64,000 bases of DNA from Escherichia phage bumzen, in the sequence record MN850635.1; one strand, given 5' to 3'. Below are positions 1 to 62,134 of this stretch, piece after piece. Positions within the stretch are counted from its first letter, which is position 1; each line of letters starts with the position of its first letter. The notes under the pieces are model-generated. The model was not told the DNA's origin. It worked only from the letters and a program-made list of their open reading frames with translations, and made no database searches. The position numbers were made by a program, and so were the translations under genes.

Positions 1-3387
<3,387 letters not shown>

Positions 3388-3389
3388 TA

Positions 3390-4538
3390 ATGGCAGTAGG
3401 TGAAATTCAAATTAGTGCCTTGCCTCAAGCAGCCTTACCAATTGACCTTAGTGATATCTTCCATCTTAAACAGGGTATCGAGGATAAGAGATGTACTCTT
3501 GAGCAATTACTTGCTCCACACTCAAGCCTAAGAAATAACCCTCATGGTGTTACTAAGACACAAATTGGTTTAGATAACGTTATTAATGCTCTCCAGTTAG
3601 TCGCTGCAAATAACTTATCAGATATTGTTAATGTAGCTGAGGCAAGAGCAAATCTACAGATTATGTCTTCAGAAGAGGTTAATAGCCTTATTCAACAGCA
3701 TATTAATGACAAGAGCAACCCACACAATACAACTAAGGCGCAGGTTGGTTTAAGTAATGTCCAGAACTGGGTGACATCTAACCTTTATAATGAGGATGCA
3801 GATAAGTATGCTACAGCAAGAGCAGTAAATAACTTGTACAAGGCTGTTCAGGCTTCTTATCCAGTAGGTACTATCCATCTCTCTATGAATCCTGCAAACC
3901 CTTCTACATATTTAATTTGTGGAGGTACTTGGGAGTTAGTTTCAAAAGGAAGAGCACTTGTAGGTTATGATAGAGATTCTAGGCCAGTTGGTTCAACGTT
4001 TGGTTCACAGACTACTGCACTGACGGTTAATAACATCCCTGCACATACCCACTCAGTGTATGTCACTGGTGGTGGTCACACTCATGGTGCAACGGCCTCT
4101 GTCAGTGCTTTTGATTATGGCACTAAAGGGACTACAACGTTTGACTACGGAACCAAGACCGTATCTACTTACGACTATGGCAACAGAACAACAAGTGCCG
4201 CTGGCTTAACACAAACAACATTCATTAACCGTGGCTATGCTGATGGTGGCTGGAGAGGTTTATCGGTTGAGGGGGCAAGCTATGACCCAAGAGCTACGTT
4301 GACAACAGCTAACAACCACACTCACTCTGTAGCAATTGGTGCGCATAATCACACAGTGGGGATTGGTGCTCACAGCCATTCTGTTGCAATTGGTTCCCAC
4401 AACCACTCAGCAACAGTAACAGTAACCGGAGCAGGTGAGCATTCGCACTCTGGCACAACTGGCACAACTGGTTCTGGTCAAGCATTTAGCGTTGAGCAGC
4501 CATCCTTCGTATTGTATGTATGGCAGAGAACAGCTTAA
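3390..4538 (+). CDS. tail fiber protein (short paralog) with His-x-His repeat tip
   Basis: 382 aa; repeats HTHSV/GAHNHTVGIGAHSHSVAIGSHNHS and SFDYGTK; C-terminus (GSGQAFSVEQPSF..W.RTA) shared with next gene. Confidence 0.7.
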   Translation: MAVGEIQISALPQAALPIDLSDIFHLKQGIEDKRCTLEQLLAPHSSLRNNPHGVTKTQIGLDNVINALQLVAANNLSDIVNVAEARANLQIMSSEEVNSLIQQHINDKSNPHNTTKAQVGLSNVQNWVTSNLYNEDADKYATARAVNNLYKAVQASYPVGTIHLSMNPANPSTYLICGGTWELVSKGRALVGYDRDSRPVGSTFGSQTTALTVNNIPAHTHSVYVTGGGHTHGATASVSAFDYGTKGTTTFDYGTKTVSTYDYGNRTTSAAGLTQTTFINRGYADGGWRGLSVEGASYDPRATLTTANNHTHSVAIGAHNHTVGIGAHSHSVAIGSHNHSATVTVTGAGEHSHSGTTGTTGSGQAFSVEQPSFVLYVWQRTA

Positions 4539-7018: not shown

Positions 7019-7213
7019 ATGCCTACAATCCTAGCAATTCTTCTAAAAAATCTAGGTAGCTTCTTCTGGAAACTCATTTTATCCCTTCTAAGTGAATACA
7101 TGATTGAGAAAGTGTTCTTTAAGCTTGCAAGATACCTTGCGAGTAAAACAGACACACCTATTGATGATGAGTTCGTAGATAACTTAGAAAAAGCTTTTAA
7201 GGGGGAGAAATAA
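7019..7213 (+). CDS. small membrane protein (holin candidate)
   Basis: 64 aa, hydrophobic N-terminal segment, charged C-terminus; follows fiber genes. Confidence 0.3.
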   Translation: MPTILAILLKNLGSFFWKLILSLLSEYMIEKVFFKLARYLASKTDTPIDDEFVDNLEKAFKGEK

Positions 7214-7585
7214 ATGAAGTGGCTAGAGGAAGCTTTTAAAAATAATATTGGTGCAATTGTAGTTGGTATTTTTAGTGTTATTGGGATGTATACCACGATG
7301 CAAGTCTCAAGTGGTAAGCAAGAAGTATCTGTCACAACAAAGTTACAGCAGCTAGATAATTATTCCAAAAGTAACTATTCAGCTATTCGTGATTTACAGT
7401 CTGACATGAGACTGATTCAGCTAGGGATGGAGAACCAGAAAGTTCAGTTAGAGAATGTTAAGGGTGAAAACGCAAAACTTACCAAAACTCTTGATAAATT
7501 CTCTGACAGTGTGAACAATCTGGCTCAATCAGTATCAGCCTTGCAAGCTATTACTGAAAAGAACACAAAGAATACTGAAAAATAA
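7214..7585 (+). CDS. membrane-anchored coiled-coil protein
   Basis: 123 aa; N-terminal TM segment (IGAIVVGIFSVIGMY) then heptad-rich region. Confidence 0.35.
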   Translation: MKWLEEAFKNNIGAIVVGIFSVIGMYTTMQVSSGKQEVSVTTKLQQLDNYSKSNYSAIRDLQSDMRLIQLGMENQKVQLENVKGENAKLTKTLDKFSDSVNNLAQSVSALQAITEKNTKNTEK

Positions 7586-44985: not shown

Positions 44986-45001
44986 TAAGTAATTTCTTAA
45001 A

Positions 45002-45030
45002 AGGCTGCTTCGGCGGCCTTTTTTATTTGT
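45002..45030 (+). terminator. rho-independent terminator with UUCG loop
   Basis: aaggctgc-ttcg-gcggcctt then ttttatttg. Confidence 0.7.
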
Positions 45031-45085: not shown

Positions 45086-45634
45086 ATGAAGAAATTGATT
45101 CTAGGTTTGTGCTTAATGTTTACAGCACACTTATCTTATGCAGTTGACTGCCCAGAGCTATCAATTAGCCAAAAAGTAAACATGTTAAAAGCTTACCAGT
45201 ATGGTGAGAATAACATGGGTAAAGGTTGGGGTATCACTCTAGCTGCTATAGCCTTACAAGAGTCAGAGTTAGGTCTGAAGGTAGAGAATAAAAAGACACA
45301 TGATTATGGTATCTTCCAGAATCACTTGAAGACTGTTGTAAAGCGTAACAAAATTAGTCCTAATGTGGCTAAAAAGAAACTCTTAAGAGACTTTGATTAT
45401 GCTGCGAAGGAAACTCACAAAGAGCTTGAGTTTTGGACAAAGGTGCATGGTCAGCCAAAGTCAAAGAAGACTTTACAAAAAGTTTTAGCATCATATAATG
45501 CTGGGTATTCGTACAAAATTCCTAAAGCTAAGAAATACTCTCAAGATGTCTATAACAATATGAAAGTCATCGCTCAATGTGAATTTGCAATAAACATTTC
45601 TAAGGTAAACCATGAAAAAATTAAAAAAGTCTGA
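45086..45634 (+). CDS. secreted lytic transglycosylase-like (SLT domain) protein
   Basis: Signal peptide MKKLILGLCLMFTAHLSYA; AIALQESELG...DYGIFQ resembles SLT catalytic-Glu motif. Confidence 0.4.
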   Translation: MKKLILGLCLMFTAHLSYAVDCPELSISQKVNMLKAYQYGENNMGKGWGITLAAIALQESELGLKVENKKTHDYGIFQNHLKTVVKRNKISPNVAKKKLLRDFDYAAKETHKELEFWTKVHGQPKSKKTLQKVLASYNAGYSYKIPKAKKYSQDVYNNMKVIAQCEFAINISKVNHEKIKKV

Positions 45635-46793: not shown

Positions 46794-46818
46794 AGGCTCC
46801 TTCGGGAGCCTTTTTCAT
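46794..46818 (+). terminator. rho-independent terminator with UUCG loop
   Basis: aggctcc-ttcg-ggagcct then ttttc. Confidence 0.7.
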
Positions 46819-46834
46819 TTCAGGAGATTGTTAA

Positions 46835-47182
46835 ATGACATTTAAAGAGTTCTGTCAAGCTACTTTCATAATTGTTTTCTTAGTTGGGGCAGGTGTCTGG
46901 GGAGGATACTCTTACAGAGACTACCAAGTTGCTGAAGCTGAGTTAAGCAATGAGAAACTAATAAGTGTTGCTAAAGACGCTTATCAGGAAGGTTTAGCCA
47001 CACTGAGCACCAATTACAAAAATGATTTGAAAGATGTGCTTGCTAAGAATAAGCATACAAAAGAGGTACTAACATATGAAAAAACTAAGCCAGAGTTTTA
47101 TAATGTTTGTGTTACTGATAACTATGTCAGGGTGTTCAACGAACAAAGTGAGCAGTACATTCAAAAACTCCCAAGTAAGTGA
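46835..47182 (+). CDS. type II membrane protein (i-spanin-like)
   Basis: 115 aa; N-terminal TM FIIVFLVGAGVWGGY then charged domain; overlapped by lipoprotein gene. Confidence 0.4.
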   Translation: MTFKEFCQATFIIVFLVGAGVWGGYSYRDYQVAEAELSNEKLISVAKDAYQEGLATLSTNYKNDLKDVLAKNKHTKEVLTYEKTKPEFYNVCVTDNYVRVFNEQSEQYIQKLPSK

Positions 47183-47345
47183 GGGTGATAAGTACACCCA
47201 AGAAGAATCACGGTATATCATCAAAGGCAACACAGGCAGCGATGTAGCAGCAGCCCTTGAGTTCTATCGTGACGGCTTTTACCAGTGCACAATCAAAGCT
47301 AACAACCTTATTGACATGATTTTATTAGGGAATAAGCAGCAATGA
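47076..47345 (+). CDS. lipoprotein (o-spanin-like)
   Basis: 89 aa; lipobox LITMSGCS; begins inside previous gene in another frame. Confidence 0.4.
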   Translation: MKKLSQSFIMFVLLITMSGCSTNKVSSTFKNSQVSEGDKYTQEESRYIIKGNTGSDVAAALEFYRDGFYQCTIKANNLIDMILLGNKQQ

Positions 47346-48335: not shown

Positions 48336-49121
48336 ATGGGTATTGTAAAAATCATCAATGGGGATATCTTCTCCGCATTTGATAAAGGTAAGTTTGATAT
48401 TATTGGTCACGGTTGCAACTGTATGAATTTAATGGGTGCAGGTATCGCTGACAAGATTTCTAAACTTTACCCAAAAGCATATGAGACCGATACAGAAGTT
48501 TATCTGTATGCAGGTGGCATAGGCCACAAACCCTGTGAAAATTTACTAGGGAATTTCTCTGTAGCACGTTTAGAACAAGGCCGTATAGCTAACCTTTACA
48601 CACAACTTCATACTGGTAAAGATGCCCGATACAGTGCTTTAGAGTCATCTTTGAAGAAACTTAACATGTACTGTGAAGTCAATCAGTTGAAGAAAGTCGG
48701 GTTACCTATGATTGGCGCAGGTATCGGTGGACTAGACCCTCAAGCCGTCACAGTTATCATTAATCAGGTGATGAAGAGTGTAGATGTTTATCTGTATGTC
48801 TACGAAGGAGAGATGTACCACAAGTTACGCTCAGGTTGGAATAACTACTGTGAACCAGAATACTTTGCAGGTGTAGTAATGTTCACAGATGATACAGTTA
48901 CCCTCTTCAGACGAAGAAAAGGTAAGATACATCAAAGTAACCCTCCGGTTGAGAAGATGTCTCTAAGTAACGCTCTAGTTACCCACCTGTCAAAGAGCAA
49001 TCACAGAATTGCTGTAACATTTGGTAGTGATGCAGAAGCTTATATCTATGCAAGAACTGATGAGGATATCGAGGCAATCTTCTCTTCACCAGAAGTTACC
49101 TTCTTAGACGCAAAGAACTAA
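48336..49121 (+). CDS. macro-domain-like protein (ADP-ribose binding/hydrolase fold) with C-terminal extension
   Basis: NGDIFSAF...DIIGHGCNCMNLMGAGIA and LPMIGAGIGGLDPQAV resemble macro-domain motifs. Confidence 0.4.
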   Translation: MGIVKIINGDIFSAFDKGKFDIIGHGCNCMNLMGAGIADKISKLYPKAYETDTEVYLYAGGIGHKPCENLLGNFSVARLEQGRIANLYTQLHTGKDARYSALESSLKKLNMYCEVNQLKKVGLPMIGAGIGGLDPQAVTVIINQVMKSVDVYLYVYEGEMYHKLRSGWNNYCEPEYFAGVVMFTDDTVTLFRRRKGKIHQSNPPVEKMSLSNALVTHLSKSNHRIAVTFGSDAEAYIYARTDEDIEAIFSSPEVTFLDAKN

Positions 49122-49189
49122 GAAACTCTGTAGTATATTCACAATAGCCTAAGCCTTTCTTATCTGGTAAATTTTTCAGGTAAGGAGGG

Positions 49190-49375
49190 CTTTTTCATTT
49201 TAGAATTGTGCAGGTAGAGTTCTGTAGAGAAATCTGTAGAGAGAATTTTGAACTCCAAAGGGAAAATTCATTTTCAAACTGTGCAGGTAATCTCCAAAGA
49301 GCTTTTTCATTTTCAAAACGTGCAGACCCCGCTCAGGTCGGGCAAGAAAAATCATTTTAGATTTGTGCAGGTAGG
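49190..49375 (+). repeat. four direct repeats of a ~22 bp motif upstream of the early-gene array
   Basis: cattttagaattgtgcaggta / cattttcaaactgtgcaggta / cattttcaaaacgtgcagacc / cattttagatttgtgcaggta, then C-rich tract 49393-49428. Confidence 0.6.
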
Positions 49376-60785: not shown

Positions 60786-61250
60786 TTACTTTGGATATAC
60801 ACTGTCAAGATAAATGTCAGCTTCCATTCTACGTCTGTTTTTCAGGCCGTTTGAAGTGACCTTCTTACCTTTCACTGTAACCTTGTTCCACCACTGCATA
60901 GCTTCTGCACAACCTACCTTATTACCAGCATTGTGGCGCTTGATAAATGTAGAATCCTGCATAGCTGTGATGCCGATGTTGTATGTTTCACTTACAAGTG
61001 CATCAAACTCGTTCTGAGAAGTTGGAACCTTGATGGCTTTGTTCACTGCTGCAACGAACTTTTCAACATCTGCAAGAAGATACTGTTCAGCTTGTTCAGC
61101 GGTAATCTTCATACCCATCTTAACAGGCTTCCCACCAATACGAATTGTCCCATACCCGATTGTAGGGATTCCGGCAGAGTCTTCGTAAGCCTCTAACTTC
61201 AGACCTTCAAAGAACTTAATAGCTTCTAAACCTTTTCTTGAGAGTTGCAT
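60786..61250 (-). CDS. endolysin, GH24 lysozyme family
   Basis: N-terminal EGLKLEAYEDSAGIPTIGYG matches the Glu-Asp-Thr catalytic motif of T4/lambda-type lysozymes. Confidence 0.8.
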   Translation of the reverse strand: MQLSRKGLEAIKFFEGLKLEAYEDSAGIPTIGYGTIRIGGKPVKMGMKITAEQAEQYLLADVEKFVAAVNKAIKVPTSQNEFDALVSETYNIGITAMQDSTFIKRHNAGNKVGCAEAMQWWNKVTVKGKKVTSNGLKNRRRMEADIYLDSVYPK

Positions 61251-62134
61251 TATGCCTCCCCTGCTGGATTAACTGTAACTGTTGCTGCATTAGATGTTAC
61301 AGAGCCACCTGCGCCAGTAACTACACAGGTGTAGCTTCCTGAATCAGCAGCGGTTGCTCCTTCTTTGGTGTAGGTTGCAGTAGTTGCATCGAGGATGTCT
61401 TCCTCATCTTTCTTCCACTGATAACCTGTTGCACCTGTTGCCACAACATTCAACGTTAAGGTCTCACCTTCATTGATTTCTTGATTGGTTGGCTGTTGAG
61501 TGATGACAGGAAGTGCATTCACAGTCACTGTTGCTGCATCTGAGGTAACACTTGTTCCACCCTCTCCAGATACAACACAAGTGTATGAACCAGCATCAGA
61601 AGGTGCTACTGACTGTTTTGTGTAAGTTGCAGAATTGGCACTAGGGATGTCCTCACCATCCTTCTTCCACTGATATCCAGTGGCGTTAGTTGCTAGAATG
61701 CTTAGAGTAAGTGTGCCACCCTCATTGACTGTTTGACCTGTCGGTTGCTGAGTAATTGCTGGTGGCTTAATAGCATCCTTCAACTTAGCATTCAACATTG
61801 AGAACGGCTTAACTCTTGCCAACCATTCACAGTAAATTGTGTCAACATCTTTACCATTGATGATTGCATACTGCAAATCCATGAAGAAATCAGCAGTTCT
61901 CATCTGTGCACCAACACTGTAAAGCAATTCATCACTAAATGGAACTTTGTAGTCTGGTTTGTAGTCAAACTTCTCAACTTCTGCAATATCAGCTTCAGGC
62001 CAATATGAACTATAGGTAAGTGGTAAAATAGCCTCTTGATATGTTCTAAAATCATACCTCTTACCAGCCTTTACATTTGCAATGAAACCCTTCACAAACT
62101 CTTTGAAGTCTGGGTAAGTCTTTGCTTTAATCAT
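61250..62134 (-). CDS. protein with N-terminal conserved domain and two tandem Ig-like domains
   Basis: Two repeats TGYQWKKD(G/E)EDI...ATYTK...D(A/S)GSYTCVV...ATVTVN; stop overlaps endolysin start (TAATG). Confidence 0.65.
   Translation of the reverse strand: MIKAKTYPDFKEFVKGFIANVKAGKRYDFRTYQEAILPLTYSSYWPEADIAEVEKFDYKPDYKVPFSDELLYSVGAQMRTADFFMDLQYAIINGKDVDTIYCEWLARVKPFSMLNAKLKDAIKPPAITQQPTGQTVNEGGTLTLSILATNATGYQWKKDGEDIPSANSATYTKQSVAPSDAGSYTCVVSGEGGTSVTSDAATVTVNALPVITQQPTNQEINEGETLTLNVVATGATGYQWKKDEEDILDATTATYTKEGATAADSGSYTCVVTGAGGSVTSNAATVTVNPAGEA

Follow-up and report, generated by a model that had tools for sequence, protein, structure and literature searches.

Two overlapping genes in a 64 kb stretch of DNA from Escherichia phage bumzen (MN850635.1), referred to here as the window, very probably encode the two-component spanin of the Felix O1/phiEco32 ('JH2') family. 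The assignment is carried by the open reading frames (ORFs) and their membrane signals, by the overlap and its conservation, by homology with spanins annotated elsewhere and by the place of distant homologues in lysis cassettes. The pair is already known, being catalogued in the literature and in the databases, and the observation is correct but ordinary. An earlier sequence-only reading had recognised the overlapped i-spanin/o-spanin layout, and this is upheld by the match of the first protein to PHROG 1152 'Rz-like spanin' (E = 8.9e-42), by the labels in GenBank and by the survey of Kongari et al. 2018 (PMC6139136).

Spanin membership was judged by the criteria of Summer 2007 and Kongari 2018, which include a single N-terminal transmembrane (TM) segment in the i-component, adjacency of the two genes, the absence of Asp at position +2 of the lipoprotein and periplasmic Cys residues for homotypic disulfides; similarity of sequence served for the JH2 family. 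The features of the pair are as follows.

46835-47182, plus strand: i-spanin gene, 115 aa, from the ORF list
46822-46826, plus strand: Shine-Dalgarno-like AGGAG, 8 nt 5' of the i-spanin ATG, read from the sequence
47076-47345, plus strand: o-spanin gene, precursor of 89 aa, from the ORF list
47063-47066, plus strand: Shine-Dalgarno-like GAGG, inside the i-spanin gene, 9 nt 5' of the o-spanin ATG
47076-47182, plus strand: dual-coding overlap of 107 nt, with the i-spanin in frame 0 and the o-spanin in frame +1

Relationship to Felix O1 and the JH2 family

The window belongs to a Felixounavirus. The 2.5 kb around the pair are 95-97% identical at the nucleotide level to the corresponding DNA of many Felixounavirus phages, among them allfine of Escherichia and Felix O1 of Salmonella, and elsewhere the window shows 99.1% identity to phage wV8. 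The pair corresponds to ORF6/ORF7 of Felix O1, which have the same lengths (115 and 89 aa), the same 107 nt overlap in the +1 frame and the same position, after rIIB, an SLT-like gene, the polynucleotide kinase gene (pnk) and an ORF of 154 aa. The i-protein differs from that of Felix O1 in 4 of 115 residues and the o-protein in 2 of 89; what separates the window pair from the family is a few conservative substitutions, and nothing of substance.

The i-protein is 96-100% identical to annotated i-spanins, and copies of the o-protein with 100% identity are held in Felixounavirus records, o-spanin being the label in many of them. Many GenBank records of Felixounavirus phages carry the labels i-spanin and o-spanin on these two genes. 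The Center for Phage Technology annotation of Citrobacter phage Mijalis has an i-spanin and an o-spanin of the same lengths and overlap, with ribosome binding sites at the equivalent places and an upstream 'terminator'.

The 'overlapped' spanin class of Kongari et al. 2018 (PMC6139136) contains Felix01, FO1a and UAB_phi87, and wV8, Moogle and phiEco32 are likewise assigned to it. In the same survey the JH2 i- and o-spanin families include Felix01, wV8, Moogle, Mushroom and EC6, with FO1a and UAB_phi87 as further members of the JH2 spanin family, and the JH2 i-spanin family also takes in phiEco32, ECBP2, KBNP1711 and NJ01. The sequence similarity expected of this family was found, and it extends by tblastn from the window i-protein to phiEco32 (33.7% identity over 82%, E = 8e-8). 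The Pfam search with both proteins returned no family at E <= 0.1 except for two irrelevant sub-threshold matches, and the NCBIfam search with both gave no spanin match; this absence of a Pfam or NCBIfam spanin match for either protein stands against the spanin reading.

The inner-membrane component

The first protein had been described from the sequence as one of 115 aa with one N-terminal TM segment and a charged domain, and the ORF at 46835-47182 and its hydropathy agree with that description. A short N-terminal tail is followed by a single TM segment at about residues 6-24 (best 19-residue Kyte-Doolittle window, mean 1.75), and the homologues all show the same layout. The remainder of the protein is a polar and charged domain of about 90 aa, containing 13 K+R and 14 D+E. 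Cys92, located in this domain inside the motif KPxFYNxC, is kept in all the aligned homologues.

On either side of the TM segment the charges are mixed, both in the window protein and in the rest of its family, and the orientation is not fixed by charges alone. A type II (N-in, C-out) orientation is suggested by the short N-terminal tail together with the conserved Cys of the C-terminal domain. A crude heptad scan did not find a strong coiled-coil register in the i-protein. The AlphaFold2 model, calculated with single-sequence input, was of low confidence (pLDDT 48) and suggests an all-helical protein.

The lipoprotein component

The N-terminus of the o-protein reads MKKLSQSFIMFVLLITMSG followed by C20, and is composed of MKK, a hydrophobic core and the element M-S-G-C20, in which the lipobox Cys is residue 20. 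The second claim of the sequence-only reading, an 89 aa lipoprotein that starts inside the i-gene in another frame, is therefore confirmed by the lipobox at C20, the +1 frame and the 107 nt overlap. The residue at +2 is Ser, not Asp, and the same residue occurs in 12 homologous pairs. Lipoproteins without Asp at +2 are directed to the outer membrane by the established rule of the E. coli Lol pathway, and outer-membrane sorting of the o-protein is predicted from its Ser.

The mature o-protein consists of 70 aa, with zero proline and one additional Cys (C71), which is kept in all aligned homologues. Each component is thus predicted from its sequence to have a periplasmic Cys available for homotypic disulfides, Cys92 in the i-spanin and Cys71 in the o-spanin. 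Position -3 of the lipobox is occupied by Met, outside the strict [LVI] consensus; the relatives carry I, T or M at this position, and such deviations have been reported among o-spanins (Kongari et al. 2018, PMC6139136).

The PHROG matches of the o-protein were 4180, a group with no assigned function (1e-49), and, weakly, 456, Rz-like spanin (2e-3). The search of a large protein database with the o-spanin returned close relatives only, with at least 79% identity. The AlphaFold2 model, based on a shallow 7-sequence alignment, was again of low confidence (pLDDT 51) and suggests a flexible linker followed by a C-terminal helix. The o-protein without proline, the Met at -3, the non-decisive charges flanking the TM segment of the i-protein and the low confidence of both AlphaFold models were counted against the spanin reading.

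The overlap and selection on both frames

The o-gene starts at codon 81 of the i-gene, residues 81-115 of the i-protein being co-encoded with residues 1-35 of the o-protein, and 163 nt of the o-gene extend beyond the i-gene stop. In their adjacency the two genes correspond to the 'overlapped' class of spanin genes. The conserved C-terminal motif of the i-spanin, which is its most conserved stretch, shares its DNA with the o-spanin's signal peptide and lipobox, and this co-encoding probably contributes to the conservation of both.

Variability was compared among five Ounavirinae sequences. The fraction of variable sites in these five was 0.159 in the overlap, 0.303 in the part coding for the i-protein only and 0.374 in the part coding for the o-protein only. 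Third codon positions held 44 of the 73 variable sites of the i-only part and 41 of the 61 of the o-only part. Since the variability is halved in the overlap and third-position changes dominate the single-coding parts, both frames are under purifying selection.

The predominance of third-position changes in the o-only part (41/61) also argues against the hardly credible reading that the 115 aa gene alone is real and that the frame of the 89 aa ORF is open by chance. Such a reading could draw on the several gene callers and GenBank records that miss the 89 aa ORF or start it at internal ATGs, and on one published comparison that gives vB_Si_DR094 an i-spanin only; mis-starts of this kind are, however, a known bias of gene callers (PMC6139136). 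In 12 of 12 loci, down to about 30% identity, the ORF is preserved together with its lipoprotein signal and C-terminal Cys. The gene has a GAGG ribosome binding site of its own, and its stop overlaps the ATG of the following gene as ATGA. When all six frames of the 64 kb were searched for lipoprotein-type signals, exactly one ORF was recovered, the 89 aa o-gene, against a mean of 0.08 expected by chance from 50 base shuffles of the window. The lipoprotein ORF is not a chance pattern.

Annotation of the o-spanin

Many database entries for the o-spanin start at internal ATGs, which gives proteins of 73 or 68 aa from which the signal peptide is lost. Other records call both genes 'o-spanin' or omit the o-spanin entirely. 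Loci with such annotation problems are listed below, with positions in the retrieved loci.

allfine, 4125-4346
mistaenkt, 1305-1511
SarahDanielle, 2968-3484

The bias of gene callers against overlapped genes is known (PMC6139136), and the mis-starts of the o-spanin are attributed to it. The same artefact of annotation probably accounts for the published report (PMC8300805) of phage vB_Si_DR094 as having an i-spanin alone.

Distant homologues and their lysis context

By tblastn, distant homologues of both proteins were found at 26-39% identity. Twelve pairs were examined, from myophages, phiEco32-type podophages, siphophages, one P2-like phage, and Proteus and Yersinia phages. The o-gene begins within the i-gene in all twelve, and for 10 of them the frame was calculated, in each case +1, the overlaps ranging from 107 to 191 nt. 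All twelve pairs keep the lipobox Cys, the Ser at +2 and the C-terminal Cys of the o-protein, as well as the Cys in the C-terminal motif KPxFxNxC of the i-protein.

In Salmonella phage SI7, which is P2-like, the order is holin, endolysin, spanin pair. In Yersinia phage P778 the pair begins 44 nt past the endolysin, and in Proteus phage 2207-N35 it is directly behind the endolysin. These pairs are true homologues of the window pair (26-34% identity), with which they have in common the C-terminal motifs of the i- and o-spanin and the +1 overlap. They adjoin the endolysin, and in SI7 also the holin, whereas the window pair is 13.4 kb away from its endolysin and on the opposite strand.

The position of homologues of both proteins, with the same overlap, directly after endolysins in SI7, P778 and 2207-N35 supports a lysis role and disfavours the alternative that the sequence-only reading had offered, a superinfection-exclusion pair. 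In that alternative the two proteins would form an early-made, envelope-modifying module that blocks DNA entry or receptors and has no role in lysis. Small phage lipoproteins can act in exclusion, as do T5 Llp and phi80 Cor, and the window pair lies among early-type genes (rIIA, rIIB, pnk and small ORFs), far from the endolysin; yet T4 shows that proven spanins can sit beside pnk in the early region. No PADLOC match was obtained at E <= 0.1, and no superinfection-exclusion family appeared among the PHROG matches at E <= 0.01. What defines the spanin layout is a type II protein paired with an overlapped lipoprotein, a periplasmic Cys being conserved in each (PMC6139136). Essentially all spanin experiments have used lambda Rz/Rz1, with the addition of the T4 complementation (Kongari et al. 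2018, PMC6139136), and in our search of the literature no functional test of a JH2 family member came to light, a point which was counted against the spanin reading and in favour of the exclusion alternative. On the whole of this evidence an exclusion module without a part in lysis is extremely unlikely, and the spanin assignment is preferred.

Distance from the endolysin

The endolysin gene of the window is the following.

60786-61250, minus strand: endolysin, 154 aa, T4-lysozyme type (Pfam Phage_lysozyme 6.7e-41; PHROG 7 1.2e-57)

The measured distance of 13.4 kb between this gene and the spanin pair, on opposite strands, is in accordance with the figure of about 13 kb given previously. The arrangement is ordinary for Felix O1-like phages, in which a distance between spanins and endolysin has been documented.

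Directly upstream of the endolysin, at 61250-62134 on the minus strand, is a gene for a protein of 294 aa, the stop of which shares one base with the endolysin ATG. This protein contains two strong immunoglobulin-like domains (Pfam Ig_3, 3.5e-23) and probably serves in decoration or structure and not as a holin. On the plus strand the tail fibre gene is followed by two genes for small membrane proteins. The first (7019-7213) encodes 64 aa and belongs to PHROG 402, which has no assigned function; the product of the second (7214-7585), 123 aa long, combines a TM segment at its N-terminus with a helical domain and weakly matched a spanin PHROG (9e-3). Several Felixounavirus records give the label 'holin' to one of these two candidates.

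Comparison with the spanins of T4 and lambda

The T4 spanin genes pseT.3 and pseT.2, which complement amber mutants of lambda Rz/Rz1, are not near t and e either (Kongari et al. 2018, PMC6139136). The T4 record gives the order alc, pseT.3, pseT.2, pseT.1, pseT. As in the window, the polynucleotide kinase gene is no more than about 0.5 kb from the T4 pair, in a region of early type, although the order of pair and kinase gene is reversed. The sizes of the proteins are 117 and 99 aa for PseT.3 and PseT.2, compared to 115 and 89 aa in the window, and the two o-spanins are alike in being without a proline-rich stretch and in having a predicted C-terminal helix. On the other hand, with an overlap of 4 nt the T4 genes fall into the 'separated' class, the window pair into the overlapped one; and a periplasmic Cys is absent from the T4 i-spanin, while the T4 o-spanin has two and the window proteins have one each.

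Homology to the T4 proteins was rejected. The comparison of the i-protein with PseT.3 gave a BLASTP E of 17, and that of the o-protein with PseT.2 an E of 0.042, from the signal peptide only. This lack of similarity past the signal peptide was counted against the spanin reading. The resemblance to T4 is positional and functional only.

Lambda Rz/Rz1 follows the same logic, that of a type II inner-membrane protein and an outer-membrane lipoprotein encoded in the +1 frame, both with periplasmic Cys residues. The differences concern extent, composition and place: lambda Rz1 is wholly embedded in Rz, whereas the window o-gene runs past the stop of the i-gene; mature Rz1 has 40 aa and is proline-rich, compared to the 70 aa without proline of the mature window o-spanin; and the lambda pair is within the S-R-Rz lysis cassette, the window pair away from the endolysin. 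Membership of the lambda Rz/Rz1 sequence families (Pfam Phage_lysis and Rz1) was considered and rejected, there being no Pfam match and no proline.

Neighbourhood and transcription

The genes around the pair are arranged in the order rIIA, rIIB, secreted SLT-like, polynucleotide kinase, 154 aa ORF, the pair, small ORFs and a 'phosphatase'. The same order is found in Felix O1, allfine and Mijalis, and, with small insertions, in two Ounavirinae that are further removed, Hafnia phage SarahDanielle and Erwinia phage M7. The designation of this region as an early block is suggested by its gene content, namely rIIA, rIIB, polynucleotide kinase and nucleotide metabolism.

46794-46811, plus strand: terminator-like hairpin with a 7 bp stem, 5 GC pairs, a TTCG loop and a T-run

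This hairpin is located 24 nt 5' of the i-spanin ATG and ends the group formed by the SLT-like gene, pnk and the 154 aa gene. A sigma-70 promoter scan did not find a convincing promoter between the hairpin and the i-gene. Since the hairpin stands 24 nt before the i-gene start, the spanin unit seems to need read-through or an unrecognised promoter. The terminator-like hairpin and the promoter not found behind it were counted against the spanin reading. The T4 late-promoter motif TATAAATA was not enriched in the window (4 found, 3.97 expected), and a search of the literature found no paper on Felixounavirus transcriptomics.

The block on the plus strand is split by three terminator-like hairpins with T-runs, at 44999-45022, 46794-46811 and 49151-49192. 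The three hairpin-bounded units comprise rIIA-rIIB; the SLT-like gene, pnk and the 154 aa ORF; and the spanins to the 'phosphatase'.

About 1.2 kb upstream of the spanins, at 45086-45634 on the plus strand, a protein of 182 aa is encoded, with a cleavable-looking signal peptide (MKKLILGLCLMFTAHLSYA) and the lytic-transglycosylase-like motifs QESELG, GIFQN and SYNAGYSY. Its match to Pfam SLT (E = 8e-4, 19.4 bits) is just under the cutoff, and no sequence match was found in the PDB. The Felix O1 record describes this protein as similar to the T4 20.7 kD protein of the vs-regB intergenic region; relatives annotate it as 'putative lysin' or 'lytic transglycosylase', and it has the same place in Hafnia phage SarahDanielle. 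From its motifs it is a candidate for a secreted muralytic protein.

It is tempting to speculate that the spanins, rIIA/rIIB and the SLT-like gene form a conserved envelope/lysis neighbourhood of the Ounavirinae, active ahead of the late genes, by which the spanins, and perhaps an exported transglycosylase, would be pre-loaded into the envelope, or that the pair has a second, early role in exclusion or remodelling; this is considered very unlikely.

Downstream of the pair, at 48336-49121 on the plus strand, is the gene of the 261 aa 'phosphatase', the start of which reads as macro-domain-like and makes it a candidate for such a domain. In phiEco32 a macro-domain (Appr-1-p processing) gene, at 2939-3379 of the retrieved locus, comes directly after the homologous spanin pair. 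A micro-synteny of spanin pair and macro-domain gene may exist between unrelated phage types.

Proposed mechanism and significance

By analogy with the work on lambda Rz/Rz1 and on T4 PseT.3/PseT.2, from which the topology, the disulfides, the formation of complexes and membrane fusion are inferred, the following course of events may be proposed. The 115 aa protein would be anchored in the inner membrane via its N-terminal segment, with a mostly helical domain extending into the periplasm. The 89 aa precursor would be lipid-modified at Cys20, cut by signal peptidase II and, because its +2 residue is Ser and not Asp, sorted to the inner leaflet of the outer membrane. The periplasmic domains of the two proteins would bind each other, giving complexes that span the periplasm through the peptidoglycan mesh and that are probably stabilised by homotypic disulfides via Cys92 of the i-protein and Cys71 of the o-protein. 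After a holin had released the endolysin encoded at 60786-61250 and the wall had been degraded, the complexes would be free to move and would fuse the inner and outer membranes, removing the last barrier to the release of the phage.

Work on lambda has established that the peptidoglycan mesh keeps spanin complexes inactive until the endolysin destroys it. Because the complex would likewise be inert until the wall is gone, the spanin genes should need neither linkage to the endolysin gene nor co-regulation with it.

The lysis genes of these phages are dispersed, as in T4, and illustrate that spanin genes can do without linkage to those of the holin and the endolysin. The importance of the pair is mainly one of correct annotation, many records mis-starting or omitting the o-spanin. 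As a spanin, the pair would provide the outer-membrane step of lysis in phages that are widely used for the typing and biocontrol of Salmonella and E. coli.
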